From: an uncultured Gammaproteobacteria bacterium
GTDB lineage: Bacteria; Patescibacteriota; Patescibacteriia; 2-12-FULL-60-25
DNA: 34,649 nucleotides
Direction: 5' to 3'
Assembly: GCA_964415965.1 (NCBI GenBank)
Contig: CAYQCK010000003.1
Coordinates: forward strand, 131,426 to 166,074
The translations under genes and the position numbers were made by a program. A model generated the notes under the pieces. The model was not told the origin of the DNA and did no database searches. It saw only the letters and a program-made list of their open reading frames with translations. Below are positions 12,262-34,493 of this stretch, one piece after another (position 1 is the first letter of the stretch; every line of letters begins with the position of its first letter).

Positions 12262-12469
12262 CCTTCTATATATCGCTATTTGTTTTTAACGTTACCTTTT
12301 ACTCGCACATAAAGGATACCATTTTTTGGCTTCATTGTCAATAATTTCATCAATTTTACCCCAACTCAGGCAAAATTCCCATGAACAAAATCGTGGTTCG
12401 TTACGCTAAAAACGCCATAAGCTGAATTCGGGCGCCGCTCCCTTTAAACTAATCCCTTTTCATGCCAAA

Positions 12470-16689: not shown

Positions 16690-16716
16690 AAAAGGAGCCC
16701 ATTGGCTCCTTTTTCA
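16690..16716 (+). terminator. intrinsic terminator
   Basis: AAAAGGAGCC-cattg-GCTCCTTTTT followed by CATTT. Confidence 0.7.
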
Positions 16717-16726
16717 TTTAGCGACG

Positions 16727-16870
16727 CCCCACTTCGCAAGTGACCCCGGGGGTCTGGGGGTCCGCGCCAAGCGTGGTGGCAGGATAACTAACGTCGGCGA
16801 CACCGAGAGCGGCATCGCGGACCCCCAGGACTTTTGCTACTTTTGGTCACAAAAGTAGATAGGAGGGCTT
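16727..16870 (+). repeat. copy A of the conserved structured element (core only; lacks the 5' GGATTCCAGC...GCTGGAATGAC module)
   Basis: CACTTCGCAAGTGAC...GGGGGTCCGCG...GACACCGAGAGCGGCATCGCGGACCCCC...CTACTTTTGGTCACAAAAGTAGATAGGAGGGCTTT. Its 3' end overlaps the stop codon of the convergent HD gene. Confidence 0.85.
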
Positions 16871-17785
16871 TCACTCTCTGATCATCGCCTTGGTCAGCTC
16901 TTCTTCCGAAGATTCAAGCACCGCGATGACGCGTCGATAGTCTTCTTTGGACTTGTCAGGCAAATCTTTCTGTCCGTCCACGATTTTCCGCAGTTGCGCG
17001 ATGGCGCCGGCGTGATCCAGCCCGCCGCGGCCACGGAACGCCTGGTACTTGTCGATGACGGCCAAAACCCCGTACCTCTCCATGAGTTCCAGGACCTTTG
17101 AACCGGGATGGATATCATCCAAGGGCACACGGGCCGGGTTCCGTCCCTCCAGGATGTGGTGCGTCGCGGCGATGACGACGACTTCGTCGTCTATCGCCCC
17201 GCCGCGGTTGCGCTGCAGCACTTCATACGTCCAGTCGGCATGGTCGCGCCAGAACTCCAACATCGGTTTGGTCTCGACATCCACGCCCAGCTCCTGGGCC
17301 AGCACCGACCTGATGCCGACGGGATCCCGCGTTTCCGTCTCACGCATGAACTCGGCGACCGTCTTCGGGACCGGCTTGCCGCCGACCGTCCTGAACGGAT
17401 TGAACGGCATCTTGGGCGTGGCGAACAGCGTCTTGATGGCCGCCCGCAAGGCTGGCGACTTGGTTTCCGGACCAGACTTCCCGATGTCGTGCAGCAGGGC
17501 GCAAAGCATCAGCTTTTCACGCGTCATGCCCCGGATGTCGAGCTTGGGCCAGATTGCCCCGACCATCCGCGCCATGCAGATCGCGTCCTCCAGGTGTTCC
17601 CCCGTCTCGATTAGGCGTTCCCGCAACTCCGGACGTTCCTCCAGCCTGAAGTCCAACCCCAGCTTGGCGACCTGCTCCAATACGCGTTGCCTGGCGGCTT
17701 CCTCCGGAGGCGTTTCGGACGGCATGGGCATTCTCGGTTCAGGCATACTTGGGCTATAGGATAGCCGTCCCAGGGCATTTGGCAA
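16871..17785 (-). CDS. HD-domain phosphohydrolase
   Basis: LLHDIGK, the HD motif, with further conserved His/Asp (ATHHILEG). Confidence 0.65.
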   Translation of the reverse strand: MPNALGRLSYSPSMPEPRMPMPSETPPEEAARQRVLEQVAKLGLDFRLEERPELRERLIETGEHLEDAICMARMVGAIWPKLDIRGMTREKLMLCALLHDIGKSGPETKSPALRAAIKTLFATPKMPFNPFRTVGGKPVPKTVAEFMRETETRDPVGIRSVLAQELGVDVETKPMLEFWRDHADWTYEVLQRNRGGAIDDEVVVIAATHHILEGRNPARVPLDDIHPGSKVLELMERYGVLAVIDKYQAFRGRGGLDHAGAIAQLRKIVDGQKDLPDKSKEDYRRVIAVLESSEEELTKAMIRE

Positions 17786-17791
17786 ATCCCG

Positions 17792-18163
17792 TTAACCAGT
17801 CAGGGCCCGCAGGGCCTCTTCCGTGCTGCCGACGAAAAACGTTTGGCCGCCCCGGTTGCTTTCGCGGATCAGCGCCTGCAGGCTCTCGCTTTGATAGCCC
17901 GAGAAGTCGCCCACGATAGCCAACTGGACGTGATACGTGACGGACTTCTGCAGGATCTCGCCGGCTAAGCCAGTGCGCAGATCGAAAAAATCCGGATTGA
18001 TGTTATCCGCGTGCAGGATGATCTTCTTGGGCGACTGGACGGCGGGATGCGCCATCAGGTCCAAGGCATCGCCGGCCGTCCGGATGACGATGCCGTCCGC
18101 CAAGACCTCCGCGACCTTCTGCCCATCGTATTCATGCGTTTTGATTTCCATGCCGGGAAGCAT
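17792..18163 (-). CDS. DUF4180-like small protein (123 aa)
   Basis: ORF 6 nt downstream of the HD gene on the same strand. Composition is protein-like; family assignment is from memory of the DUF4180 pattern. Confidence 0.4.
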   Translation of the reverse strand: MLPGMEIKTHEYDGQKVAEVLADGIVIRTAGDALDLMAHPAVQSPKKIILHADNINPDFFDLRTGLAGEILQKSVTYHVQLAIVGDFSGYQSESLQALIRESNRGGQTFFVGSTEEALRALTG

Positions 18164-18197
18164 AGCACAAAACCCGGGTATTGCCCGGGTTTTGTGC

Positions 18198-18287
<90 letters not shown>

Positions 18288-18486
18288 ATGCTCGGCCTTG
18301 CGACCTTCGTTCCGTTCACGCCTGCTGGCGCTCACCGCACTTCCGGTCGGGGCCTGCGCTCCCCATTCGCCCGCTGGCGAACGAGGGCCCCACCACATCG
18401 GATGCGCGGACAGCGTAACCGATTGAGGCTTGACGGTCAACCCGGGGCATTGTAAGGCGCCGGATTATTCCTTAATCTATGGATAT

Positions 18487-18690
18487 ATGTCGACTCCCGA
18501 CACCCTGCGCGCCCTGTGCTTCGATGAAGCCGGAGCCGCGCGCCCCAAGAACGACTGCCGCGCCAGCATCATCAACCATCTCATCTTGGAGGAAGGTTTG
18601 GATATCGACGAAGCCGAGGACCTGGCCGAGCAGACGCTCCGCCAAGCCAACCTCTGGCCGGAGAATCCGACGGCACAACCGCTGCCGTAA
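18487..18690 (+). CDS. possible small acidic protein (67 aa)
   Basis: ORF with plausible composition, followed by a highly structured non-coding stretch. No strong RBS. Confidence 0.25.
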   Translation: MSTPDTLRALCFDEAGAARPKNDCRASIINHLILEEGLDIDEAEDLAEQTLRQANLWPENPTAQPLP

Positions 18691-19062
18691 ACAAGATCCC
18701 GGGTCGCGCTCCGCTTGCCCGGGATGCCTCGCCACGCGAGGCACTTATCCACCGTTGCGCTCTTGACGCGGTCCATGCGGCATGAGAAGAAATAGCCATG
18801 CAAGTCGGTAACGTCTCCGTCGCGACATCCGCAGTCCGCTCCGCAGTTTGCGCTGAGCGCCAGGTTCGACTCCCCCACGTCTGATCCCAGGTGGGTTTTT
18901 TCGTTCGCCGTCCGGCGTCGGATACCGATTCGACGCGGTCCGGTGAGCGGGGCAGGACTCATTGAGTCTCTCCCCTTCCAACATCGCGTTGGCTCACGGG
19001 ATCCCAGATGCGGGTGTCGCCGTTCCCATGCTTGGCGGCGACGCAGCATCGCCAGGAGGAAA

Positions 19063-19095
19063 CCCCTCCCCCTCACCGGGGAGGGGTTTTCGTTT
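19063..19095 (+). terminator. intrinsic terminator, + strand
   Basis: CCCCTCCCC-ctcacc-GGGGAGGGG followed by TTTTCGTTT. Confidence 0.7.
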
Positions 19096-19101
19096 GCCCA
19101 G

Positions 19102-19331
19102 CCATGAACTCCAGCTGGAGCTTACCCCAGCCACCGAGCCGGGGCTGGAATGACAGGTGGGTTAGTTGGGTCGGTTGGGTTAAAGAGTCCCACTTCGCAA
19201 GTGACACGGGGGACCGGGGGTCCATGCTAAGCGTGGCGCACAGGATAACAGACGTCGGCGACACCGAGAGCGCATCATGGACCCCCGGAACTTTTGCTAC
19301 TTTTGGTTACAAAAGTAGATAGGATGGCTTT
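19102..19331 (+). repeat. copy B of the conserved structured element (full length, with 5' module)
   Basis: CCATGAACTCCAGC-[hairpin]-GCTGGAATGACA, a GT-rich spacer, then core CACTTCGCAAGTGAC...GATAGGATGGCTTT. Confidence 0.85.
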
Positions 19332-19336
19332 TGGTA

Positions 19337-19377
19337 AAAGAAAAGCCCCCTCACACCAAAGTTTCTGATGTGAGGGG
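19337..19377 (-). terminator. intrinsic terminator for the - strand lipoprotein operon
   Basis: - strand reads CCCCCCTCACATCAGAAACTTTGGTGTGAGGGGG followed by CTTTTCTTTT. Confidence 0.75.
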
Positions 19378-19395: not shown

Positions 19396-20154
19396 CTACC
19401 GGTGCATCCGGAAGTATGCAGAAGCAGTGTTCTGGCGGTGGGGTTCGCCGTTGTTGCGCGGAACCCCGAACATCCGAGTCATGGTCCCGACTTCGATGCC
19501 CGGGATGCCAGGGGCGCCGGGGTTGGTGACGAGGGCGAAGTCGACCTGAACTTTGCCTACGCCACCGTTGTGGGGAAGGAAGACGTACCGGACGATCATG
19601 CCCGGCGGAACCAACGCTACGCGGTCGACGCGGCCGTTGCGGCGCGTGACGTCCACGTACACCAGCTTCTCCCCTTCGCAATCCAGCGGCTTGATGTGCC
19701 CGCTCGCCCTGACCTCGACCATGAAGGTCTTGTTCAGGCTGTTGTCCACCACGAGGGTGAGCGCGGGATCAGCTCCGCAGAAGGGGCCGGCGTACTCGGG
19801 GGAGATGATGACGTTCGCCGGAGGCACTGCCATCGGCGGCTGGCCCTGAGGCACGGCTGCCGTCGGCATGAGCGGGGGCTGGCCGGTCACCGGAGGAGCG
19901 GCCTGGGTCGGCACCGCTGCGGTCTGGGCCGGCACGCTAGTCGGCTTGGCCCGCGCTTCCCGACGGTCGCTCTCCATCTTCTCCAGGCAGGCCAGGTAGA
20001 CCTCCTGAGAGGGGCTCTTCTGCCGGTCGCAGGTATCGCTGGATGAGTCGTACGCGCCTCTCCAGTCGGCGCCGGTCTTGATGGTCGCTCCGCACGCGCT
20101 GGTGAGGATCGAGACGATGATGACGAACGCTACGTACACGAGAGAACTCTTCAT
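19396..20154 (-). CDS. secreted lipoprotein (252 aa), paralog family with shared Y-x-x-CLEK motif
   Basis: Lipobox ILTSAC, Pro/Ala/Gln-rich linker, beta-rich C-terminal domain. GGAGG RBS upstream of the ATG at 20154. Confidence 0.6.
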   Translation of the reverse strand: MKSSLVYVAFVIIVSILTSACGATIKTGADWRGAYDSSSDTCDRQKSPSQEVYLACLEKMESDRREARAKPTSVPAQTAAVPTQAAPPVTGQPPLMPTAAVPQGQPPMAVPPANVIISPEYAGPFCGADPALTLVVDNSLNKTFMVEVRASGHIKPLDCEGEKLVYVDVTRRNGRVDRVALVPPGMIVRYVFLPHNGGVGKVQVDFALVTNPGAPGIPGIEVGTMTRMFGVPRNNGEPHRQNTASAYFRMHR

Positions 20155-20300: not shown

Positions 20301-20879
20301 CTACTTCCTCCCCGAGTTGCCGCTGGTGCAGCAAATCGGATCCTTGGGGTTCGCCCGGCAGATCGCGTCGTGCTGGGCCTTGGTCGCCCTGGCGAGGTCC
20401 GCGACGTCCTGGTCGCTCGCTCCGCCCGACGCTCCCGGCGTGACGTAGATGCGCGCGCCGCCCGAGCTGCGCTCCATGGCGACCGCGCCGTACGGCGTCG
20501 AGTCGGGGATGATGGCCGGAGCGCAGGCCGGGGAACCCGGCAAGCACGTCCTGACCATTCCCGGCGACCCGTATCCGTATCCGCCGTATCCGTATCCGCC
20601 GTAACCAGGCATCGCTCCCGGCATGCCCCCGCCGGACGTCTGTCCGCGGCAGTACATGTCGGCCTGCGAGCTGCCCATGGTCGGCGAGTTGCGCTTGATG
20701 CACTCGTCGAACTGGGCGCGGCTGTTGATGACCGTGTCGGTCGAGGTGTTGTACGGCCCGCGGGTCGTCGTCGTCCGGCTGTAGCCGTTCGGCGTGTTGA
20801 CCTCGGTGGTCGCGCTCACCGTCCTGCAGCCCATCGTGGCGAGAACCAATGCAACCAGCACCAATACGAGCTTGCTCAT
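20301..20879 (-). CDS. Cys-rich lipoprotein with Gly/Tyr repeats (192 aa)
   Basis: Lipobox LVLATMGC, a GYGGYGYGGYGYG tract, 10 Cys, GGAG RBS, driven by the TTGACAAGA-N-TATATT promoter. Confidence 0.6.
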   Translation of the reverse strand: MSKLVLVLVALVLATMGCRTVSATTEVNTPNGYSRTTTTRGPYNTSTDTVINSRAQFDECIKRNSPTMGSSQADMYCRGQTSGGGMPGAMPGYGGYGYGGYGYGSPGMVRTCLPGSPACAPAIIPDSTPYGAVAMERSSGGARIYVTPGASGGASDQDVADLARATKAQHDAICRANPKDPICCTSGNSGRK

Positions 20880-20973
20880 GTGATGATCTCCTTCGGGCTA
20901 TGCCCGATTTTCGGTTGTCGAAGCCGTCCCAGCTGAAGTTTCGCACTTGGCTACACCTTCAGTAGAACAAACA

Positions 20974-21002
20974 AATATAACACAAAAAGCCATTCTTGTC
21001 AA
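20974..21002 (-). promoter_or_regulatory. sigma70-like promoter (TTGACA-17-TATATT) for the 20879 gene
   Basis: - strand reads CTTGACAAGAATGGCTTTTTGTGTTATATTTGTTTGTTC. This is near-identical to the promoters at 24867-24895, 22008-22036 and 34465-34493. Confidence 0.6.
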
Positions 21003-21083
21003 GCCCCACCAGACAAAAAATATAGCTCAACAGAGCCCAATAATAGTGGCTTAACTAAGCCAATAAACCGAGAATATACGGCT

Positions 21084-21298
21084 TGGATTCCAGCTAGAGT
21101 CCACCCTGGCCACCGAGCCGGGGCTGGGATGACAGGACAAGGAAGCGAAAGAACCTCGTTTCGCAAGTGACCACGGGGGTCTGGGGGTCCGCGCCAAGCG
21201 TGGTGGCAGGATAACTAACGTCGGCGACACCGAGAGCGGCATCGCGGACCCCCAGGACTTTTGCTACTTTTGGTCACAAAAGTAGATAGAAAGGCTTT
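21084..21298 (+). repeat. copy C of the conserved structured element
   Basis: TTGGATTCCAGC-[hairpin]-GCTGGGATGACA...CGTTTCGCAAGTGACC...GATAGAAAGGCTTT. Confidence 0.85.
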
Positions 21299-21305
21299 CA
21301 ATTTT

Positions 21306-21520
21306 ATGACCAACCATGGATTCCAGCTTTCGCTGGAATGACACGTGGGTTAGTTGGGTCGGTTAGGTTAAAGAGTCCCACTTCGCAAGTGACAAGGGGG
21401 ACCGGGGGTCCGCGCCAAGCGTGGTACGCAAAAACGCAAACGCCCGCGACACCGAGAGCGGCATCGCGGACCCCCGGAACTTTTGCTACTTTTGGTTACA
21501 AAAGTAGAGAGAAGGGCTTT
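21306..21520 (+). repeat. copy D of the conserved structured element, in tandem with C
   Basis: ATGACCAACCATGGATTCCAGC-tttc-GCTGGAATGACA...CACTTCGCAAGTGAC...GAGAGAAGGGCTTTT. Confidence 0.85.
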
Positions 21521-21537
21521 TGCCGACAATATAGATA

Positions 21538-21570
21538 AAGCCGCGGAAACAAGTGTCTCCGCGGCTTTGC
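21538..21570. terminator. bidirectional intrinsic terminator
   Basis: AAAGCCGCGGAAACAAGTGTCTCCGCGGCTTT with a T-run on both strands. It ends the - gene 21590..21940 and any + transcript covering C-D. Confidence 0.7.
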
Positions 21571-21589
21571 GTGGCGGGAAGCGCTGGGC

Positions 21590-21940
21590 TTAGTAGCCGT
21601 ACGGCCGGCCGGGTGAGGACCAGCGGTTGTAGCCCGGGGTGCCGTAGTTGCCGTAGCTCGGGTAGTAGCCTCCGGCCTGGTACACCGGCAGCTGTCCGGG
21701 ACGACCCGCGCGGATCCAGTAGCCGCACTCTTCGGCGGCGCCCGGATAGCCCGCGTTCTTCTCCAGACACAGCTGGTAGGCCGACTTCTCGGCCGTGTCT
21801 GAAGTGACCTCGGTCGAGAACAAACCAACATCAGATCTGCGTGCATGCGCCATTTCCGGCGTCGTATCACGCACCGTGGTCGTGTGGCCGCAGCCAGCGA
21901 GGGCGAACGCCAACATCATGGTAATGAGCAAAGGCTTCAT
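21590..21940 (-). CDS. small secreted lipoprotein (116 aa) with the AYQLCLEK motif
   Basis: Start trimmed to MKPLLITMMLAFALAGC (lipobox) with GGAGAG RBS. Tyr/Gly/Pro-rich C-terminus. Confidence 0.6.
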   Translation of the reverse strand: MKPLLITMMLAFALAGCGHTTTVRDTTPEMAHARRSDVGLFSTEVTSDTAEKSAYQLCLEKNAGYPGAAEECGYWIRAGRPGQLPVYQAGGYYPSYGNYGTPGYNRWSSPGRPYGY

Positions 21941-22007
21941 CTCAACTCTCCCAGACAGCCAGAGTGGCCGTCTTTTCTTGATGGTTTGAAGATTCGGGGA
22001 ACGTATA

Positions 22008-22036
22008 TGTATACCATTTTTCCGTGTTTTTGTCAA
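22008..22036 (-). promoter_or_regulatory. sigma70-like promoter (TTGACA-17-TATACA)
   Basis: - strand reads GGGTTGACAAAAACACGGAAAAATGGTATACAT. Confidence 0.55.
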
Positions 22037-22057
22037 CCCTCCAGGGTATTTTCCGGC

Positions 22058-22096
22058 AAAGAAAAACCCCCTCGCCTGCGAGTGCAGGGAGGGGGT
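22058..22096 (-). terminator. intrinsic terminator after the VirB6-like gene
   Basis: - strand reads CCCCCTCCCTGCACTCGCAGGCGAGGGGG followed by TTTTTCTTT. Confidence 0.7.
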
Positions 22097-22134
22097 TGAG
22101 AGCCGCGTTGCGCGGCCCAAGGAGCGGCCTGACG

Positions 22135-23823
22135 TCACTTGCAGACGTCAGGATGCCTGGCGCAGTACGCGTCCAGGCCGGGGTTGCCCGAGCAGTTGCC
22201 GTTAGGGCAGTTCCGGACCACGACCGGAGGGGTCGTCGAGGTGGGCGGGGGCGCCACGCTCTTGTCCGGGACCTTGACCAGCACTTCCTGGCTCAGCTCG
22301 GTCTCGCCCGAAGCGTAGACCGCAGCCACGCGGTAAGCGTAGGTCGTGCCCGCGACCACCGTCGCGTCGTCGTAGTGGGTGACGCCGTTGGCCAGCGCGT
22401 TGAACGCCGTCCAATTCGTCTCGCCCACTGCCCGGCGCTCGTAACGGTAGCCCTTGGCTGCCTTCGGGATCTCGGGGTAGGTCAGCCTGACCTTGCCGTC
22501 GACGATGTTCGCCTGGGGCGCGAACATCTTCGAGAGCGAAGTGCCTTCCTTCAGGTTGAAGGTGTCGGCCTTGCCCCACGAGAAGATCGTGATGCACAGG
22601 CTGCCGATGGCCAGGAACATCATGAGGATGAACGACGCGGCCAGCAGCTGGCGGGCGCGCCGCGGGGCTCCCGTGGCGTCCTCGTCCGGCCAGCACATCC
22701 AGCCGACGAACCCGGTGAACAGGGCGCCGCAGAGCGCCGCGTACCACGGGAACCCGACGAACTTCTTGTCGCCGATGCCGAGGACCCACTTGATGGCGCC
22801 GATGGCCACGTCCACGATGCCGCCCAGGAGCGCGCCGATCTGGATGACCAGAGCGTCGAACTTGACCTGCAGCGGAGGGAAGAAGACCACGAGCGCGAGG
22901 AGCACGAGGAGCGCGTACCCGGCGTACACCAGGGAGCGCGCCGCCCGCTGCCGCCAGCTGAGCGTGTCGATGCCGTTGTTCTCCGCGTTCTCGAAGGAGA
23001 GGTAGGAGAAGATCCCGGCCAGCGTCGTCAGTACGAGCACCGACGGGAAGGGCATGAGCACGCCGATGGCGAGGACCGGCAAGAGCGCCGAATTGATCCG
23101 CGCTTTGGCCCGCTTGATGGCCGGTTTGAACATCTCCTGGTCGGCCAGGTTGATGTCCACGTTCGCCAGGCCCCTGAGGCCGGCCGTGATGAGCGTCTTC
23201 GCGATGCTCACGATGGCGTTGCTCGAGCCTTCGGCGAAGTCCACGCCCAGCTTGGCCATGTGCGCCACCAGGTCCACGACCATGAACAGCACTTCGCGGG
23301 CCATCAGGATGTACACCACCCCGAGGACGGCCAGCATGCGCGCGTCCATGAGCGGAGCCAGGTTGACCGGATCGGCGACCACGTTCCCGACCGCCAGATG
23401 CGCGGCCAGGAAGAACCAGACGCCGAGCGAGAGCAGGCCGAGGAATGAAGCCGAAATCACGGTCATGACCGAGAAGTCGTCCAGCGGACGGAGTCCGTTC
23501 ACGACAATCCAGGCCGAGAAACCGCTGGCGATCAGCAGCCCGACGATCCACGCCGACTGCGGCACGGTCGTACCGAGCGCGAGGAGCATGGCGCCGAAGA
23601 CGCCGACGAACAGCACGCCGACCACGACCCAGCCGATCCGGCGGAACGCCGGAGCGATGAGCGTGTCGTACGCCAGTCCCGCCAGGTCGACGAGCGCCTG
23701 GCCGGTCGCGGCGAACATGTTGCCGATGGCCGTCAGGAGCGCGCCGCCGCCCAGGAACTGGACGACCGCCACGAAGCCGACGAGCACGACGATCGAAAGC
23801 AATACCACTACCATGAGCTGCAT
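22135..23823 (-). CDS. VirB6/TrbL-like polytopic membrane protein with C-terminal FN3-like domain and Cys-rich tail
   Basis: About 10 TM helices across 430 aa, then a soluble C-terminus (TYPEIPKAAKGYRYERRAVGETNWTAF...YAYRVAAVYASGETELS) and CPNGNCSGNPGLDAYCARHPDVCK. Start trimmed to the ATG at 23823. Confidence 0.45.
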   Translation of the reverse strand: MQLMVVVLLSIVVLVGFVAVVQFLGGGALLTAIGNMFAATGQALVDLAGLAYDTLIAPAFRRIGWVVVGVLFVGVFGAMLLALGTTVPQSAWIVGLLIASGFSAWIVVNGLRPLDDFSVMTVISASFLGLLSLGVWFFLAAHLAVGNVVADPVNLAPLMDARMLAVLGVVYILMAREVLFMVVDLVAHMAKLGVDFAEGSSNAIVSIAKTLITAGLRGLANVDINLADQEMFKPAIKRAKARINSALLPVLAIGVLMPFPSVLVLTTLAGIFSYLSFENAENNGIDTLSWRQRAARSLVYAGYALLVLLALVVFFPPLQVKFDALVIQIGALLGGIVDVAIGAIKWVLGIGDKKFVGFPWYAALCGALFTGFVGWMCWPDEDATGAPRRARQLLAASFILMMFLAIGSLCITIFSWGKADTFNLKEGTSLSKMFAPQANIVDGKVRLTYPEIPKAAKGYRYERRAVGETNWTAFNALANGVTHYDDATVVAGTTYAYRVAAVYASGETELSQEVLVKVPDKSVAPPPTSTTPPVVVRNCPNGNCSGNPGLDAYCARHPDVCK

Positions 23824-23881
23824 TTTCAATCTCCTTCTGTCCGGGCCCGATTCCGGGCCCGGACCGGTTGTCAGACGCTCG

Positions 23882-24769
23882 CTACCATTCCCGCCGAGCT
23901 TTCGCCCGACGGGCTGCGATCTTGGAGCGGACACCGTCGACCGCTCCCGTGAGGCTGTCCACTCCAGTGGCCATCTCCTTCAGGGCCGCATCAGGCTTGT
24001 CGACGAGCTCCTCAGCCTTCTTGCCGAAGGCGCCGAAGAACTTCTTCTTGGCCTTCTCGAGCGTGCCCATGATGCCTCCGGCTTCCGGCGGCTTGATGTC
24101 GCCGTAGGCCAGCTTGAGGTGGGCGATCCAGGTGTCCTTGTCGAGGTCGATGAGGGTGAGCATGAGGTTGAAAAGTTCCCACCTGTTGCCCACGATCTTT
24201 GCCCGATACGTCTCGAACGCCTTCTTGTCCTCTTCGGACAGGCTGGCGTGCTTGGCTTGGAACGCCCTCTGCCGCGCGACCTCGAGCGAGAGCAGCGCCG
24301 AGCTGAACGTCGCGCTCTCGAGCAGGAGACTCCGGGCCTTTTCCTTGGCCTCGGCCGTCGCCTTGCTCAGGTCCTGCTCCGTGATCTTGCCCTTGGTCCG
24401 CTGGGCATGTCCCAGCCCGTGGATGAAGCTATCGATCGCCTCGTCCAACAGGCTGATGTACTCCTCGGGGACGCCGAGCGACTTGAGGCCGGTGCGGACA
24501 AGCTTGGGGTTCTGGATGAGCGCCGCGGCTCCGGCTGTCACCAGGCCTGCGGCATGGGTGCCGATGAGGCTCTCGACCGCGTCGAGGCCGCGCGACATCC
24601 ACGGCTGGTTGGCCACTCGGCCGCCCAACCCGCCCGCCACGACCTGCACCAGGTTCGAGAAGAACCTGACGTAGAACCGCGGATCGGACGCCATATCCTT
24701 GGCTTCTTCCTTGCCCTTCTTGCCGCGCCTGCCGCCACCAGAGTCATCCCTGCCCGTATCTTCTGGCAT
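23882..24769 (-). CDS. hypothetical protein (295 aa), first gene of the VirB6-like operon
   Basis: GGAGAAGGA RBS upstream of the trimmed start. Helical, Lys/Ala/Glu-rich C-terminal half. Confidence 0.5.
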   Translation of the reverse strand: MPEDTGRDDSGGGRRGKKGKEEAKDMASDPRFYVRFFSNLVQVVAGGLGGRVANQPWMSRGLDAVESLIGTHAAGLVTAGAAALIQNPKLVRTGLKSLGVPEEYISLLDEAIDSFIHGLGHAQRTKGKITEQDLSKATAEAKEKARSLLLESATFSSALLSLEVARQRAFQAKHASLSEEDKKAFETYRAKIVGNRWELFNLMLTLIDLDKDTWIAHLKLAYGDIKPPEAGGIMGTLEKAKKKFFGAFGKKAEELVDKPDAALKEMATGVDSLTGAVDGVRSKIAARRAKARREW

Positions 24770-24866
24770 GTTCGTTTCCTTCTCCCCCGTTTGGGGGTTC
24801 TTCTGTTGCCGAAGTTGCCGCTCCTTGGGCGCGTCCCCGAATGGGACACTCCTCAAAGAACAAACA

Positions 24867-24895
24867 AATATAGCACAAAACCCCCTTTTTGTCAA
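24867..24895 (-). promoter_or_regulatory. sigma70-like promoter (TTGACA-17-TATATT)
   Basis: - strand reads CTCTTGACAAAAAGGGGGTTTTGTGCTATATTTGTTTGTTC. The first ~25 nt of the transcript are near-identical to the 20974 promoter transcript. Confidence 0.6.
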
Positions 24896-25021
24896 GAGTG
24901 CCATTAACAAAAATGTCGCTCAACTGAGCCATTTTTTACCCAAATTATTTGGCTTTGTTGAGCGATTTATTCTAAGCGCCGTTAAGAAAATGGTGGATAT
25001 GTGCTTTTTAGCCATGACCAG

Positions 25022-25213
25022 CCATGGATTCCAGCTTGCACTGTAATGACAGCGGGGGGGCGGAAGAGTCACACTTCGCAAGTGACCTCGGGGGTCTGGG
25101 GGTCCGCGCCAAGCGTAGCGGCAAGATGACTGACGTCGGCGACACCGAGAGCGGCATCGCGGACCCCCAGGACTTTTGCTACTTTTGGTCACAAAAGTAG
25201 ATAGGAGGGCTTT
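25022..25213 (+). repeat. copy E of the conserved structured element (degenerate 5' module)
   Basis: CCATGGATTCCAGCTTGCACTGTAATGACA...CACTTCGCAAGTGACC...GATAGGAGGGCTTT. Confidence 0.85.
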
Positions 25214-25220
25214 CTGTTTT

Positions 25221-25458
25221 ATGGCCAACCATGGATTCCAGCTGGAGTTTACCCCGGCCACCAAGCCGGGGCTGGAATGACGGATGGATCAGGTGGGTTA
25301 GGTGGGTCAAAGAGCCCCGTTTCGCAAGTGACACGGGGGACCGGGGGTCCATGCTAAGCGTGGCGCACAGGATAACCCGCATTCGCGACACCGAGAGCGC
25401 ATCATGGACCCCCGGAACTTTTGCTACTTTTGGTCACAAAAGTAGATAGGATGGCTTT
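25221..25458 (+). repeat. copy F of the conserved structured element, in tandem with E
   Basis: ATGGCCAACCATGGATTCCAGC-[hairpin]-GCTGGAATGAC...CGTTTCGCAAGTGAC...GATAGGATGGCTTT. Confidence 0.85.
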
Positions 25459-25469
25459 ATGCCTTTTAC

Positions 25470-27071
25470 CTACAGCCTAACTTCAAAAGTCACGCCATCT
25501 TCAGTCTCCTTAAGTTTCAGAAACCGAGGATCCGATTCGATGAGCTTCAGGAATTGCCTATGGATTTCACGCTTGCTAATGAAAACGAATCTCGAGTCGA
25601 GCCGATCATGGATCAATTCCCAAGCTTGCTCCTTGGTCGTGCTCGTCATGCCCCAGGTGAGGTTCCTGACATCGTCCGACAAAGTCGAGGACGCGACGTA
25701 GAGGAAAGTCGGGTCCATGCCTGAGACATAACGCAATCGGTCATCGGCCGCGAACAGCATCGGGAACTCGTCCCAGCTCGAATGGAACACGCGGTCTCCC
25801 GGTTGCGCCAACTTCGCGACGGCTTCAAAGCTGCCGCGATAAGCTGTGTCCGGATAGTTCGCCGGGTGCAGGCTCCGCCAGATGCCTTGGACCTCGCGCC
25901 CGGCCAAACCAAGCGCCAAAACGCCCACAAGAATCAGCAAGGCCGATAGCCCGCGCTTCCCCAACACCCTGAGGCTATCCTTGGCCTCGGCCGCCAAACG
26001 GCGCGCGTCGACCATGCTCCAGATTGCGCCGCACCAGATGGCCACGGCCGGCGCCAGATATTCGGTCGTGCGTCGGCTCTTGAGGGTCAAGGCGAAAAAA
26101 GCCGCCACTAATAAGCCAGAAGACAGGCATAAAGCCGCCTTCTCGCGGTCCGCCGGACGGCGCGGCGCCAGCGCCAGCCCGGCCAGGCCCAGCAGCAAAT
26201 CGATGATCCAGGGCGCATACGCCGTGACCAAATGCGTGGCTTCAGGCGGCAGCCACTCGGTGCCCATGACAACCTTGCCCATGGGCGTGCCCAGGCCGAT
26301 GATGAAAACCTGCGTCCAGCTGAACAAGAAATTCTCCGGGAAATTCGGATGGACAAGCATCCCGAACAGTCCCCCGGCCAGGACCGCCGCGACCTCCTTC
26401 CACAGCCCGTGCTTCAAGGCCTGGACGAACCGCATCCCGCCCAAATCCCTGTCGGCGACCAAACGACCGAAGGCCAGGACCGTCGCCGCACCGGCCAGAT
26501 AGGGCCAACCGCCGTGCGACAACGCATAGGTCGCCGCGATGGCGAACGCCGCCCACGGCCGCCGTCGCCACACGGCCAGGATGCCGAGCAGGAACAACGC
26601 GATAGCCAAGGGCGAAGCCTTGCCCAACAGGATCCGCGTCACGAACGGCTGGGTCACGGCCAACACGGTCACCCAAATCCCCGGCCTCCAGACCCCGAAC
26701 GCGCGCAAAACGGCATACGCCGCCGCCAGGCAGGCCGCAGCCAAAGCCACGCTCGCGATGCGCAATCCCTGGAATGGGCCGAAAACCGCCGTGGCCGGCG
26801 CGACCAGGACATGGAACAGGAAATGCAGGTCCGCGTAATGCTGTCCGACGGACGTCAGATCAAGCCAGGGAAATGTATTCAACGGCCCATGCGCCCAAAG
26901 CAACGCCGACGTTTTGGCGTGGTAAAAAGCATCCGGGTCATTGAACCCGTCCCAAGGCATCAGGACCGAGAAATACGCCAGGCCGAACAAAAAAACCCCG
27001 ACAGCCCTCTTCAAACCATCGACTCTCGACTCACGAATACATGCCTTGATCACCCCCGAACTATAACACAA
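25470..27071 (-). CDS. polytopic membrane protein, probable GT-C-type glycosyltransferase (ArnT/PMT-like) with C-terminal soluble domain
   Basis: About 12 TM helices over 400 aa plus a ~130 aa C-terminal domain, last gene of the galU-pilin operon. Family call is tentative. Confidence 0.4.
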   Translation of the reverse strand: MCYSSGVIKACIRESRVDGLKRAVGVFLFGLAYFSVLMPWDGFNDPDAFYHAKTSALLWAHGPLNTFPWLDLTSVGQHYADLHFLFHVLVAPATAVFGPFQGLRIASVALAAACLAAAYAVLRAFGVWRPGIWVTVLAVTQPFVTRILLGKASPLAIALFLLGILAVWRRRPWAAFAIAATYALSHGGWPYLAGAATVLAFGRLVADRDLGGMRFVQALKHGLWKEVAAVLAGGLFGMLVHPNFPENFLFSWTQVFIIGLGTPMGKVVMGTEWLPPEATHLVTAYAPWIIDLLLGLAGLALAPRRPADREKAALCLSSGLLVAAFFALTLKSRRTTEYLAPAVAIWCGAIWSMVDARRLAAEAKDSLRVLGKRGLSALLILVGVLALGLAGREVQGIWRSLHPANYPDTAYRGSFEAVAKLAQPGDRVFHSSWDEFPMLFAADDRLRYVSGMDPTFLYVASSTLSDDVRNLTWGMTSTTKEQAWELIHDRLDSRFVFISKREIHRQFLKLIESDPRFLKLKETEDGVTFEVRL

Positions 27072-27119: not shown

Positions 27120-27503
27120 CTATCCCTGTCCGGTCGCGTTGATGAGCGAACCCATCACGAAACTCGAGATGGCGTAAGCCGCGACGATGATTATCAAGCC
27201 GATGATGGCCTGGGTAAGCATGTCTTTGGCCTTCTTGACCTTGCTGTCGTCGCCCTGCGCCGTCATCCAGAGGAAACCGGCGTAAAGCGTCAGGACGAGG
27301 AAGACGATGCCCAGGAAGCCGAGGAAAATATTGATCAGGTTACCGATCATCTCGGTCAGCCCTCCTTCAGTTTTAATCCCGGCCGTCTCACCGACTTTTC
27401 CGACCATCTCCTGCCCTTTCTGGAACGGATTCTCAGCCAGGACCTGCAGCGGCGCCATCAGCGCCAAGCCGGCTCCGGCGATGTATGTCTTTAGGTTCTT
27501 CAT
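27120..27503 (-). CDS. VirB2/TrbC-like (T4SS-pilin-like) small membrane protein, paralog F
   Basis: Signal peptide, short ectodomain, TM1 ending LYAGFLWMTAQGDDSKVKKAKDM, then TM2 LTQAIIGLIIIVAAYAISSFV. Confidence 0.6.
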   Translation of the reverse strand: MKNLKTYIAGAGLALMAPLQVLAENPFQKGQEMVGKVGETAGIKTEGGLTEMIGNLINIFLGFLGIVFLVLTLYAGFLWMTAQGDDSKVKKAKDMLTQAIIGLIIIVAAYAISSFVMGSLINATGQG

Positions 27504-27538
27504 AACGATATTAGCTTCGTGGCTCACGTTTATGCTTA

Positions 27539-27961
27539 TTAGCCTCCTTCTCCGCCTCCGCCGCCGACATCGCCCGTGCCTCCGCTTGTCGCGTTGCCGA
27601 GCGAGCCGATGACGAAATCCGCGATCGCATAGGCCGCGACGATGATGACCAAGCCGATGACGGCCTGGGTTATCATGTCCTTGGCTTTCTTGACCTTGGA
27701 CTCGTCTCCCTGCGCCGTCATCCAGAGGAAACCGGCATAGATCAGGATGGCCAACAGGACCAACCCGAGCAGCCCCAGGGCTTGGCCGATCAAGGAACCG
27801 ACGATCCGCGTCAGATCCGTGGGCCCTTGGTCGTACCCGGACGGTCTGGCCGCAGCGCTCAAGCCTGTCCGCATCGAATCCGCCGGGGCGGCTACGGCTG
27901 GCAAAGCCAAAACCGCGGCCAAACCTACGGCCAAACTCGTGCAAGCGATGAATTTCCTCAT
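27539..27961 (-). CDS. VirB2/TrbC-like small membrane protein, paralog E (Gly-rich tail)
   Basis: IYAGFLWMTAQGDESKVKKAKDMITQAVIGLVIIVAAYAIADFV; start at MRKFIAC (an alternative ATG lies at 27970). Confidence 0.6.
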   Translation of the reverse strand: MRKFIACTSLAVGLAAVLALPAVAAPADSMRTGLSAAARPSGYDQGPTDLTRIVGSLIGQALGLLGLVLLAILIYAGFLWMTAQGDESKVKKAKDMITQAVIGLVIIVAAYAIADFVIGSLGNATSGGTGDVGGGGGEGG

Positions 27962-27996
27962 GTGATGCATAACGATGGTTACAAGCGGACCGCGGG

Positions 27997-28395
27997 CTAG
28001 GCGTCCTGCGTCGCGGTGATCAAACGTGAAATGACGAAGCTGGTGATCGCCCATGCCGACAAGATGATGGCCAAACCGATAATGCCTGAAACGATAAGTT
28101 TCTTGGCTTCTCCGGTCTTTTCATCGTTCCCTCCGGCGATCATCCATTTGAAACCGCCGAGCAGCACGATGACCACGGCGACGATGCCGAGGAAACCGAG
28201 CGCGACGTTGATGATGCGGGCTGCGGTCTGGCGGACATCGCCTGAACCGAGCTTGATCGTCGACTGGATGGCCCCTACGCCCAGATCGTTCTGGTTGAGG
28301 TCATCGGCGGCGAACACCACGGCCGGGGCGGCCAAAACGGCGGCCAGACCGAGGGTCGTGGCGAAGGCTGCAGCTTTCTTAAGACGTTGCGTCAT
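27997..28395 (-). CDS. VirB2/TrbC-like small membrane protein, paralog D
   Basis: Signal peptide, then LLGGFKWMIAGGNDEKTGEAKKLIVSGIIGLAIILSAWAITSFV. Confidence 0.55.
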   Translation of the reverse strand: MTQRLKKAAAFATTLGLAAVLAAPAVVFAADDLNQNDLGVGAIQSTIKLGSGDVRQTAARIINVALGFLGIVAVVIVLLGGFKWMIAGGNDEKTGEAKKLIVSGIIGLAIILSAWAITSFVISRLITATQDA

Positions 28396-28492
28396 GTCAT
28401 GTGTCACCTCCTTTCGGTTTGGGATACACGCTTTACGTGTCGGTGGGAAGTTTAGCAGATGCGCCGTCCGGAGTCGAATCCCCAAGCGGCCT

Positions 28493-28954
28493 TCAGGGCA
28501 CGGCTTGGCCGGTCGTTTCCGGGTTTCCGGCCTGGCTCGTCGGGGCGTTGTTCGGGGGCGTCGCGCCGGACAGCGTGCTCCCGAGTCTCGTGATGATGTT
28601 GAACACCAAGACGTAAGCCAACGACACGATCGCCAGGCCGATGACCGCGTTCTTGAGCGTCGTGGTCGCCTTCTTCACCCGGTCGCTTTCGCCTGACGCC
28701 GTCATGTACATGACTCCGCCCCAGATGAACATGGCCAAAAACAGCGAGCCGACCAAGGGCAGTACCCAACTGATGATGCGGGCCACGAGTTCGGGCACGC
28801 TCTTGCCGCCCATCGGGTCCTGCAGGCCGTAACTCTGGAAACCGGCCGGCGCCGGGCTCGGTTGCGACGCCGCCGAGACGGGCAGGGTGATGGCCAGGAC
28901 GACCAGGCAAGCGACAACGGCCGAAACGGTCAAAAGGGTTTGTTTGTTTTTCAT
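28493..28954 (-). CDS. VirB2/TrbC-like small membrane protein, paralog C
   Basis: FIWGGVMYMTASGESDRVKKATTTLKNAVIGLAIVSLAYVLVF, with a Pro/Thr-rich C-terminal tail. Confidence 0.55.
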   Translation of the reverse strand: MKNKQTLLTVSAVVACLVVLAITLPVSAASQPSPAPAGFQSYGLQDPMGGKSVPELVARIISWVLPLVGSLFLAMFIWGGVMYMTASGESDRVKKATTTLKNAVIGLAIVSLAYVLVFNIITRLGSTLSGATPPNNAPTSQAGNPETTGQAVP

Positions 28955-28961
28955 AGCGGTG

Positions 28962-29657
28962 TCACGAGCCTTGCGGCACGGCGTAGCCCGTCGTCTCCGG
29001 CGGTGGCTTCGGGACATCTGAAGTCAAAGCCTTGAAGAAGAAGTCCACCAGGACATAGGCGAACATGATGAGCGCCAAACCGATGATGGCGTACTTCATC
29101 GTGTCCGTCGCCTGCTTCACCCGGTCGCTCGAACCGGCCGTCATGTACATGATGCCGGCGTAGATGAACACGATCAGGGCCAAGGCCCCGACCATGCCGA
29201 TGAACGCGGCCACGAACCGGCCGATAAGGGCGTTCAACGTCACGCAATCGGCCTTGCCCGTCGGACACAGCGGATTCGCCAACGTCATCGGCGAACCGGC
29301 CGATACGCCCGCCGAGGCCTGCGTGGCCGAAGCGGCGCGCGCCAGACAGGTCGGATCATTCGGGTTCTTCTTGCACAGGTCTTCGATAAGGGGCTCGAGG
29401 GCGGGACCAACCGCTTTCTGCGCCTGTTTGTTCTTGCAGCATGCCGCATTTACGGTCTTGACGCACGTTCCGAGCTTATCCTGGTTCATCTCGCAATCGT
29501 CGCTCACCAGGTTGCAGCTCCCGCCCTGCTTCGTGCAATCCTGGGGAGTCATGGCCGCGGCCGACTCCGCTTGGACAAAAAACAGGCTAAACGCGACCAT
29601 AAGACCGGTAATGGCCGGCAGGATTTTCTTGTATGTTTGCTTGGCCATATGGTTCAT
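28962..29657 (-). CDS. VirB2/TrbC-like membrane protein, paralog B, with ~150 aa Cys-rich ectodomain
   Basis: 12 Cys in the ectodomain, then IYAGIMYMTAGSSDRVKQATDTMKYAIIGLALIMFAYVLVDFF. ATGA overlap with paralog A. Confidence 0.55.
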   Translation of the reverse strand: MNHMAKQTYKKILPAITGLMVAFSLFFVQAESAAAMTPQDCTKQGGSCNLVSDDCEMNQDKLGTCVKTVNAACCKNKQAQKAVGPALEPLIEDLCKKNPNDPTCLARAASATQASAGVSAGSPMTLANPLCPTGKADCVTLNALIGRFVAAFIGMVGALALIVFIYAGIMYMTAGSSDRVKQATDTMKYAIIGLALIMFAYVLVDFFFKALTSDVPKPPPETTGYAVPQGS

Positions 29658-32368: not shown

Positions 32369-32428
32369 ATACCTGGATTATACCCGTCCCGAAGGCAGAT
32401 AAAAAAGACCGCCGATTTTTGCCGGCGG

Positions 32429-32643
32429 ATGGATTCCGGGGGATTTTGCCCGGCCCCAAACCGGGGCTGGAATGACGGGTTGGGTTATCGGACAAAAAAG
32501 CCCCACTTCGCAAGTGACAAGGGGGGGGTCCGGGGGGCCGCGTGGCGTGGCGCACAGAATCTCTAACGTCAGCGACACCGAGAGCGCATAGCGGACCCCC
32601 GGAGCTTTTGCTACTTTTGGCTACAAAAGTAGATAGAAGGTTT
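32429..32643 (+). repeat. copy G of the conserved structured element (most divergent copy)
   Basis: ATGGATTCCGGGGG...CCGGGGCTGGAATGAC...CACTTCGCAAGTGAC...GACACCGAGAGCGCATAGCGGACCCCC...CTACTTTTGGCTACAAAAGTAGATAGAAGGTTT. Confidence 0.8.
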
Positions 32644-32663
32644 AAAATATTTAGGACGCGGCC

Positions 32664-32690
32664 GTGGATTCCAGCTTCCGCTGGAATGAC
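32664..32690 (+). repeat. isolated 5' module (H) of the element family
   Basis: GTGGATTCCAGC-ttcc-GCTGGAATGAC with no core following. Confidence 0.6.
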
Positions 32691-32744
32691 GGTCGTCCTG
32701 GGTTTCTCCACGCGCTTCGCTCGGTCGAAATGACGGCGCGGTGT

Positions 32745-34435: not shown

Positions 34436-34464
34436 TCAGCTCCTCCTGTTGAAGGGACCGTCAT

Positions 34465-34493
34465 TTATATCAAATTTTTGCCTTTTTGTCAAG
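34465..34493 (-). promoter_or_regulatory. sigma70-like promoter (TTGACA-17-TATAAA)
   Basis: - strand reads TCCTTGACAAAAAGGCAAAAATTTGATATAAATG. Confidence 0.55.

Follow-up and report, generated by a model that had tools for sequence, protein, structure and literature searches.

A conserved cassette of operator-like boxes, near-consensus promoter and structured leader at two operons of an uncultured Uhrbacteria-related bacterium, and a separate family of structured repeats beside it

Promoters of the sigma-70/sigma-A type that carry a TRTG '-16' motif, a kind of extended -10 known from Bacillus, together with an UP element are described in B. subtilis and at the ribosomal RNA genes of E. coli. 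Dimeric helix-turn-helix regulators have operators such as the class I CRP site near -61.5 or pairs of sites phased on the DNA helix, and in compact genomes an intrinsic terminator may stand just before the next promoter. Structured intergenic repeats include ERIC/IRU (enterobacterial repetitive intergenic consensus/intergenic repeat unit), pneumococcal BOX, neisserial Correia and REP/BIME (repetitive extragenic palindrome/bacterial interspersed mosaic element) sequences. To our knowledge, almost nothing is known about gene control in the Candidate Phyla Radiation (CPR, Patescibacteria), a clade without a pure culture. The stretch analyzed here (the window) comprises 34,649 nucleotides of contig CAYQCK010000003.1 (assembly GCA_964415965.1), derived from a high-GC host of this group, and also forms part of a 63.5-kb metagenomic contig (JGI Ga0248168_1000578). 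Among the collections searched, the nearest named relatives of the host were Candidatus Uhrbacteria metagenome-assembled genomes, and the clade that carries the locus is related to this lineage. In the window, two minus-strand operons are each preceded by a region that appears to be a copy of one cis-regulatory cassette, composed of operator-like boxes, a predicted strong promoter and a leader, and tandem plus-strand structured elements lie beside both. We regard such a cassette, with the elements as separate objects, as the best overall explanation of the locus and, on balance, a probable one. As a kind of element it is ordinary, in that operator-like sites upstream (or a terminator next to it) and a structured leader accompany a housekeeping promoter, here in duplicate at two operons. 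Position numbers below are window coordinates, copies A-H are repeat copies, and L-numbers denote compared loci or contigs of other genomes.

The original prediction held that the two intergenic regions are homologous over promoter and leader, and the comparison bore this out. Both regions contain the 24-mer AGAACAAACAAATATA[A/G]CACAAAA (20964-20987 and 24857-24880, 23 of 24 positions identical), the box GCTCAAC[A/T]GAGCC (21025-21037 and 24918-24930), the same distance from this box to the -35 element (31.5 nt, center to center) and the same leader start, a likeness that is not merely one of consensus. Searching 41.8 kb around the window copies (20-42 kb of sequence were inspected per genome), we found no third match to the 24-mer with up to three mismatches, and shuffled sequences gave an expectation of 0. 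Ungapped identity of the two regions was 56/83 from about -75 to +10, 31/36 from -35 to -10 and 33/38 from -35 to +8, and all ten positions after the -10 hexamer were the same. The -10/spacer block and minus-strand TTGACA that had been described were present at both places. The first promoter (20964-21002, minus strand) has its -35 hexamer TTGACA at 20997-21002, a TGTG extension at 20981-20984, its -10 hexamer TATATT at 20974-20979 and the start region TGTTTGTTC; the second (24857-24895, minus strand) has the corresponding parts at 24890-24895, 24874-24877 and 24867-24872. Both read TTGACA-17-TATATT, an 11/12 match to the consensus with TG ahead of the -10, and they were the top two sigma-70-type matches in the 16.6 kb scanned. 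Judged from the -10 positions, transcription would start at about 20967-20968 and 24860-24861.

Syntenic relatives were found through homologs of the 562-amino-acid (aa) product of the second operon: L026 (75% aa identity), L027/L028 (76%), L029 (60%) and L031 (62%). A fifth relative with the same locus, L010, had originally been retrieved for the RNA element. In total, 10 cassettes were identified in 6 genomes, all upstream of orthologous operons and all with the boxes in the same register to the -35 element. Between genomes the cassette was 80-98% identical, whereas the downstream genes were only about 43-81% identical. From -35 to +8, identity among cassettes was 33-36 of 38 positions (34-36 for the first promoter and its orthologs). 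At the second cassette, window and L029 shared 42 of 43 positions from the proximal box to the -35, 36 of 38 from -35 to +8 and 72 of 92 in the leader, compared with nucleotide identities of 43%, 56% and 67% in the adjacent genes and 26% identity of the first protein. Every cassette showed the same promoter order, CTTGACAA followed by a spacer ending in TTTT[G/A]TG and then [C/T]TATATT (an extended -10 of the TRTG type), and around the predicted start T[G/A]T[T/A]TGTTC was invariant. We conclude from these alignments that a single cis-regulatory cassette has been retained at two operons, each region holding one of the paralogous copies. The paralogy includes the leader, because the leaders of the two L029 loci, which are of the same type, are identical to each other at 75 of 91 positions.

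The predicted leaders follow a common plan of about 90 nt: a stem-loop of 42 nt forms the 5' terminus, a small hairpin whose loop reads RCAAC comes next, and a GC hairpin adjoins the ribosome-binding site. As had been noted, they start alike, both with GTTTGTTCT (individually GTTTGTTCTACTGAAGGTGT and GTTTGTTCTTTGAGGAGTGT). The first leader (20880-20968, minus strand, 89 nt) would form the 5' stem-loop at 20926-20968, a small ACAAC-loop hairpin at 20910-20922 and the GC hairpin at 20893-20907, with an AGGAG Shine-Dalgarno sequence at about 20888-20892. In the second (24770-24861, minus strand, 92 nt), the corresponding structures are predicted at 24820-24861, 24800-24814 (GGCAACA loop) and 24784-24797, and the Shine-Dalgarno sequence at about 24777-24783. 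The second leader folds at -45 kcal/mol (z = -5.5), and its type is conserved, with pair-preserving changes, in L026, L027, both loci of L029, L010 and L031. In the alignment of nine leaders, the pairs of the 5' stem-loop survive sequence change in the orthologs, the small-hairpin stem covaries (CUUC/GAAG, CUUU/AAAG, UUCG/CGAA), and 4 of 5 pairs of the GC hairpin are changed on both sides between leader types; this covariation evidence, like that for the elements described below, comes from 9-12 related sequences. The leader of the first window locus has diverged since in its 5' stem-loop. The leader probably sets mRNA stability (via the 5' stem-loop) and/or translation. Read on the plus strand, the GC hairpins (20893-20907 and 24781-24797) are each followed by a T-rich run and were marked as terminator-like; they could stop antisense transcription leaving the operons.

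Each cassette carries two boxes upstream of the -35. The looser pattern GCTNAACNNAGC gave four matches in the 41.8 kb, two per region and zero elsewhere, compared with about 0.3 expected by chance by our own estimate from the number of specified bases; the motif search proposed earlier thus returned these two regions only. In the first region, the proximal box (21025-21037, GCTCAACAGAGCC on the plus strand) has a GCT-N6-AGC core, and the distal box (21048-21061, GGCTTAACTAAGCC; pattern match 21049-21060, plus strand) is a 6+2+6 dyad 24 nt away. In the second, the proximal box lies at 24918-24930 (GCTCAACTGAGCC on the plus strand) and the distal box at 24951-24963 (GGCTTTGTTGAGC on the plus strand; pattern match 24952-24963, minus strand), inverted relative to the proximal box and 33-34 nt from it. 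Between the proximal box and the -35, the minus strand carries a tract of six T at 21015-21020 (about -53 to -48) and of five T at 24909-24913; the form ATTTTT(T)GT occurs in 10/10 cassettes. The GCT-N6-AGC dyad was found in 17-20 of the 20 boxes, with C2, T3, A10 and G11 invariant in all 20. Across the ten cassettes, the distance from proximal box to -35 is constant within 1 nt, although only 10 of 22 spacer positions are identical between the paralogs. The spacing of the two boxes falls into two classes, 24 versus 34 bp, a difference of about one helical turn. The box described earlier is accordingly real, present twice and held in the same register across genomes, but it spans about -58 to -70 (center about -64) and not -45 to -60. 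It is also not part of the repeated element, because the flanks of copies A, B and G lack it; the possibility, raised with the prediction, that the box merely belongs to a longer repeat at unrelated loci was not borne out in the sequence inspected. The GCCATG-type lead-in, which had been taken for a further promoter-region box, is instead a piece of the repeat, within its 5' hairpin module.

On the plus strand, the cassettes are flanked by pairs of repeat copies, here identified with a covariance model. Beside the first cassette lie copy C (21084-21305, a long 5' hairpin and a type-1 core at 21149-21305, 173 bits) and copy D (21306-21527, a short 5' hairpin and a type-2 core at 21371-21527, 167 bits); beside the second lie copy E (25014-25220, a short 5' hairpin and a type-1 core at 25064-25220, 169 bits) and copy F (25221-25465, a long 5' hairpin and a type-2 core at 25310-25465, 161 bits), whose 3' end abuts the stop codon of a convergent 496-aa gene. 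In the relatives, the covariance model detected one copy beside one L029 cassette (8632-8786, at the position of copy F) and none beside the cassettes of L026, L027/L028, L010 and L031; L010 has almost no spacer upstream of the cassette. Because they are absent beside the retained cassette in four of five relatives, the tandem elements are not part of the conserved unit, but variable insertions. Other sites vary as well. The site of the 245-nt copy B (19095-19338) is uninterrupted in L026 (14170-14200, reading ...GGGGGTTTTCTTTATGCGAAAACCCCTCCCC...), and L029 has only half a 5' hairpin there (GCGAAAGCTGGAATCCACGGCTGG, 14165-14225), with no clear target duplication; at ychF, the window, L003 and L010 carry a copy, and the site is empty in both L026 and L029. 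In place of the RNA element, REP-like hairpin arrays of the form ...GTCGTCCTGAACGGAGCG...CGCTCAGGAYGACRG were observed upstream of the cassette at L026 8393-8600, L027 4349-4740 and L031 1-30. The 5' hairpin of the window copies (GGATTCCAGC...GCTGGAATGACRG) has an architecture like that of the REP-like hairpins of L026 and L027, in the opposite orientation to the genes.

How the likeness between the two regions arose can be explained in other ways. Two strong promoters might have converged on the consensus of the organism without common ancestry or special regulation; both cassette promoters are near-consensus, and other promoters of the window also begin with TTGACAA. However, the identity covers non-consensus features (the spacer, ten positions beyond the -10, the box itself and its precise distance from the promoter), the remaining TTGACAA promoters belong to a different class (AAAAATGGTAT), and the two L029 leaders are 82% identical to each other, all of which makes convergence very improbable. 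The original prediction, on the other hand, envisaged more than a shared cassette: a block of gene, promoter, leader and type-1/type-2 element pair duplicated as a whole, with the elements transcribed divergently and the box co-regulating the mRNA and the pair. The parts do come in the same order in both regions, both pairs consist of a type-1 followed by a type-2 core, their junctions are conserved as had been pointed out (GGCTTTCAATTTTATGACCAACCATGGATTCC for C/D, GGCTTTCTGTTTTATGGCCAACCATGGATTCC for E/F), and the single copies of L003 and L010 also stand back to back with a divergent promoter. Yet the downstream proteins are unrelated: the first gene of operon 1 encodes a 192-aa lipoprotein, as predicted, with the signal MSKLVLVLVALVLATMGC in its translation, whereas the 295-aa protein encoded by the first gene of operon 2 has no signal peptide, and BLASTP found no similarity between the two (E = 5.1). 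The elements are missing beside the conserved cassette in most relatives, where the boxes are kept. Nor do the pairs behave as simple duplicates, since identity reaches 90% between C and E but 79% between D and F, with the 5' hairpins swapped (long/short versus short/long). The first element begins 47 nt from the boxes in one region but 95 nt from them in the other, the two regions have no plus-strand promoter in common, and complementarity between elements and leaders was no better than in shuffled controls (z = -0.35 to +1.27). We therefore consider duplication of the whole block unlikely, if less so than convergence, and retain descent of the cassette alone.

The role of the box pair is less clear-cut. 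The most likely reading, which we hold tentatively, is an operator for a dimeric DNA-binding regulator, centered at about -64; an auxiliary site would lie near -88 or -98, facing the same side of the helix. It is favored because the box ends are dyad-symmetric, the register to the -35 has stayed constant despite a diverged spacer, the spacing classes lie about one turn apart, and L031 keeps both the ends and the position. In L031, the proximal box retains GCT-N6-AGC and the register with its center in the opposite orientation, so that the boxes are direct repeats, and the dyad site is kept while pairing with the distal box is lost. Several points limit this explanation. Neither a helix-turn-helix nor another regulator domain was found near the locus among the window open reading frames (ORFs) scanned and the conserved small neighbors, and boxed cassettes numbered only two per locus in the sequence inspected. 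A near-consensus promoter with an extended -10 needs no activator, and -64 is an unusual place for a simple repressor. The ten cassettes share descent, and their invariance represents fewer independent events than it seems; the activity of the promoters, their start sites and co-regulation are likewise predicted from sequence. In addition, the boxes of 9/10 cassettes are inverted repeats of each other. On the mRNA-sense strand they would fold into a hairpin (-8 to -19 kcal/mol) directly ahead of the T tract, and G-U pairs number 14 there versus 6 A-C; this arrangement also fits a terminator.

On that alternative, the boxes are the arms of a sense-strand RNA hairpin that forms, with the U tract, an intrinsic terminator or insulator against read-through from the upstream operon, and the cassette would be a terminator-promoter-leader unit. 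We consider it the main rival and possible, though less probable than an operator. Inter-box pairing amounts to 9-11 of 12 positions in nine of the ten cassettes and shows compensatory changes (for example, two C-G pairs of the window are A-U in L010); the excess of G-U over A-C favors the sense strand, on which the hairpin is also more stable than on the antisense strand in 6 of 8 comparable cassettes. The stem reaches 14-15 bp with a loop of 4-5 nt in L010 and L026, a tract of 5-6 T follows 3-4 nt after the stem in all cassettes, and the 10-nt indel that separates the spacing types sits in the hairpin loop. L010 has no other terminator-like structure from the upstream stop codon to the -35, and a simple scan marked both boxes of the first intergenic region of the window as weak terminator-like sites. 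However, the direct repeats of L031 pair at only 7 of 12 positions (about -4 kcal/mol) and yet retain the box ends and the register, and in L026 and L027 the distal arm has degenerated with no compensatory changes, the proximal arm being unaltered. The stem is A/U-rich, the loop measures 12-20 nt in most copies, and a gap of 3-4 nt precedes the U tract. Canonical GC-rich terminators are in use in these genomes; at the first locus, such a terminator (21537-21568) already stands behind the upstream gene. A terminator would also not need the fixed 22-nt distance to the -35. Operator and terminator roles are not mutually exclusive. What stands of the regulator site originally proposed is a box that behaves as a conserved cis element, for which a protein site and a hairpin arm both remain readings.

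With the operator as the preferred reading, the near-consensus promoter would drive strong, constitutive-type transcription of both operons, the boxes would bind a dimeric regulator upstream, the T tract probably acts as an UP element, and the leader would tune stability or translation. Boxes and leader must carry an additional function because they are conserved far beyond what a promoter alone requires. Both operons may be regulated together from the cassette copies; the common control suggested earlier is plausible in this sense, by inference from the shared cassette. The tandem plus-strand elements belong to a separate family, whose copies have accumulated in this genome in the variable stretch that separates the cassette from the operon upstream. 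Sigma-54, LexA and IHF-like sites were considered for the conserved blocks, but none fitted when compared by eye with the known consensus sequences.

The element family itself comprises seven full plus-strand copies (A-G) within 16 kb of the window and one solitary 5' hairpin (H). Besides C-F, these are copy A (16722-16878), a core without 5' hairpin, copy B, both also identified by the covariance model, and copy G with hairpin H (32430-32700; G 32430-32652, H 32654-32700), located downstream of ychF. The core of about 155 nt consists of a small hairpin (CACUU-CGC-AAGUG), a long interrupted helix (GGGGGUCCGCG/CGCGGACCCCC) with an outward extension, an inner hairpin, the invariant unpaired GCGACACCGAGAGCG and a terminal hairpin (CUACUUUUG/CAAAAGUAG). 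The 5' hairpin (GGAUUCCAGC...GCUGGAAUGAC) is an optional module with short and long forms, absent from copy A and from all copies in other genomes. Identities are 77-91% among window copies and 62-76% between these and most foreign copies; of two subtypes, one comprises A, C and E and the other B and F. In an alignment of 12 copies, which are related and few (seven from the window and five from three sources, an Uhrbacteria metagenome-assembled genome, a 1.36-Mb metagenomic contig and a 4.7-kb contig), 90.8% of cells were paired, compared with 33-54% when partner columns were slid, and seven pairs were changed on both sides. The covariation score was 0.217 versus 0.149 in shuffles (0 of 500 reached it), and compensatory changes were seen between genomes. 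Because G-U pairs exceed A-C pairs by 45 to 8, the plus strand is the structured strand; folding of copy E (25014-25225) gave z = -3.55 for the plus-strand and -4.09 for the minus-strand RNA.

Rfam searches at gathering scores across the whole window returned only two tRNAs, and neither the leaders nor any element core had a match at E <= 10 in 20800-21700 and 24700-25500; weak matches far below gathering scores (E = 1.4-8.5) fell on the box pair, a 5' hairpin and an element tail. Collection scans for the element gave two real loci and one chance match in genomes, three real loci and nine chance matches inside an unrelated gene in metagenomes, and none in the viral contigs scanned. The literature on CPR/Uhrbacteria RNA motifs and on the conserved strings yielded nothing relevant. 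For the elements, we found no plus-strand promoter match, no shared upstream motif and no assigned terminator, and no terminal inverted repeats or target duplication were seen; the ends are fuzzy and the 5' flanks T-rich. A conserved small ORF in the 5' hairpin (MTNHGFQLSLE-like) was considered and rejected, because neither its start codons nor its frame are kept, and the conservation is accounted for by the hairpin. The filled and empty sites and the T-rich 5' flanks would be in keeping with a miniature transposable element (MITE), derived from IS200/IS605 or of another kind, but the fuzzy ends, the lack of a target duplication and the absence of an annotated transposase in the 41.8 kb would not. 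The elements are best described as an unclassified, strand-specific, insertion-polymorphic structured repeat and a candidate non-coding RNA (ncRNA).

Hairpin H, a 5' hairpin without core, stands directly after G between ychF and the NTP-transferase gene. A minus-strand terminator-like hairpin (32409-32428) lies beyond G, and for this reason a ychF transcript would cross H and G antisense before ending. Three Logan contigs of near-identical strains (L017, L023 and L024) end inside elements, with partial covariance-model matches at the contig ends; these repeats thus fragment short-read assemblies of the lineage. Gene orientation flips from mostly plus to all minus at about 16700-16900, and the eight element copies, each on the plus strand, are all found at this switch or to its right.

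A bolder combination of the two findings can be put forward, though we find it doubtful. The core of about 155 nt would be a new structured ncRNA class restricted to Uhrbacteria-like CPR, multi-copy and, as its gain or loss at precise sites between genes suggests, a mobile or recombination-prone RNA gene, and the cassette the first defined operator/promoter/riboregulatory-leader unit of a CPR regulon for pilin-linked envelope operons. The two might interact, possibly by sense read-through across the antisense of the element RNA that ends at the box hairpin.

The gene order around the two cassettes is a conserved chromosomal locus. All genes from about 16.9 kb onward are on the minus strand and run, in the sense of transcription, ychF, galU (the NTP-transferase gene), a solute-binding protein gene, six PF18895 pilin-like genes, a gene of about 500 aa (496 in the window), the second-region cassette, genes of about 300 aa (295), 570 aa (562) and 115 aa (a 116-aa lipoprotein), the first-region cassette and two lipoprotein genes (192 and 252 aa). 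Operon 1 begins with the 192-aa gene (20301-20879 in the gene calls, minus strand), whose orthologs in L026, L027 and L029 show 56-82% nucleotide identity, followed by the 252-aa gene (19396-20154, minus strand). Operon 2 begins with the 295-aa gene (23882-24769, minus strand), followed by the 562-aa gene (22135-23823, minus strand). Neither the 192-aa nor the 562-aa protein had a Pfam match; read from its sequence alone, the latter is a putative membrane protein. The 295-aa protein evolves fast (26-47% aa identity to its orthologs), and a search for its homologs returned a single near-identical cluster. On the contigs of this cluster, the second region is identical to that of the window, which is weak evidence since divergence along the locus is patchy. 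Between 21493 and 25103, the window and the sister strain L023 differ at 0-14 positions per 100 nt, very unevenly and with a peak in the 295-aa gene, which suggests recombination or diversifying selection on the protein.

Other features of the locus were also observed. A second promoter-like class, TTGACAA...AAAAATGGTAT(A/C)C, distinct from the cassette promoters, occurs at 12313-12341, 22007-22036 and 34463-34492 (minus strand), preceding a SpoIID-like gene, the 116-aa lipoprotein gene and a 165-aa gene. Six tandem paralogous genes matching PF18895 (T4SS_pilin) occupy 27120-29657 (minus strand), with DNA repeats common to the paralogs (families D5, D7, D10 and D13); the array is kept in L026, L027, L029 and probably L010. 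Between element B and a tRNA-Ser gene, a region of about 400 nt (18685-19092, minus strand; L026 14195-14625; L029 14201-14610) is highly conserved in the three genomes. Its alignment contains reading-frame-breaking indels of 1-2 nt, and RNAalifold predicted 122 pairs, 13 with compensatory changes. With no Rfam match at E <= 10 (18150-19150) and no transfer-messenger RNA (tmRNA) call, it looks like an unclassified large structured RNA, and a 199-aa ORF at 18477-19076 is probably spurious.

In a lineage whose regulation is unexplored, the cassette is unusually well delimited by phylogenetic footprinting. It is defined to the base in its boxes, promoter and leader, and selection acts on it much more strongly than on the genes for envelope proteins under its control. 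Common to two operons beside a pilin-like cluster, it offers a concrete target for regulation studies.

Compared with the promoters of B. subtilis and E. coli, the cassette shares TTGACA, the 17-bp spacer and TGTG/TATG one base before TATATT, and its T tract at about -53 to -48 is placed as in promoters with UP elements. In contrast, its host is an uncultivated CPR bacterium, and its start region and spacer are conserved far beyond the known needs of a promoter. With the operators of dimeric helix-turn-helix regulators, the boxes share a 12-bp dyad near -64, a second box one or two helical turns further upstream and a fixed register to the -35. Unlike CRP-type sites, they match no nameable motif, no cognate regulator was found nearby and the promoter looks strong unaided. 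The inverted repeat and T tract right upstream of the -35 also recall an intrinsic terminator placed just before the next promoter. However, the A/U-rich stem, the large loop and the spacer before the U tract are not typical of such terminators, and the inverted-repeat character is lost in L031.

The element family is a less ordinary object than the cassette, as it resembles repeats of the ERIC, BOX and Correia type in its behavior and RNA genes in its conservation. Like multicopy small RNA families, the omega RNAs of TnpB/IscB and the bridge RNAs of IS110, the elements are structured, about 155 nt long and present in several copies per genome. Unlike for the omega and bridge RNA systems, no partner gene was found near them (no TnpB, IscB, IS110, reverse-transcriptase gene or transposase was annotated in the 41.8 kb around the copies) and there was no Rfam match, HEARO included. 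With ERIC/IRU, BOX, Correia and REP/BIME sequences they share multi-copy, intergenic occurrence, modular build, strong folding, presence or absence at orthologous sites and breaks in assemblies. However, the core is not a simple palindrome and contains the invariant unpaired UUCGCAAGUGAC and GCGACACCGAGAGCG, and its strand-specific G-U pairs, its compensatory changes, the copy that three genomes share at the ychF locus and the lack of visible terminal inverted repeats and target duplications make the family look more like an RNA gene than these repeats do.

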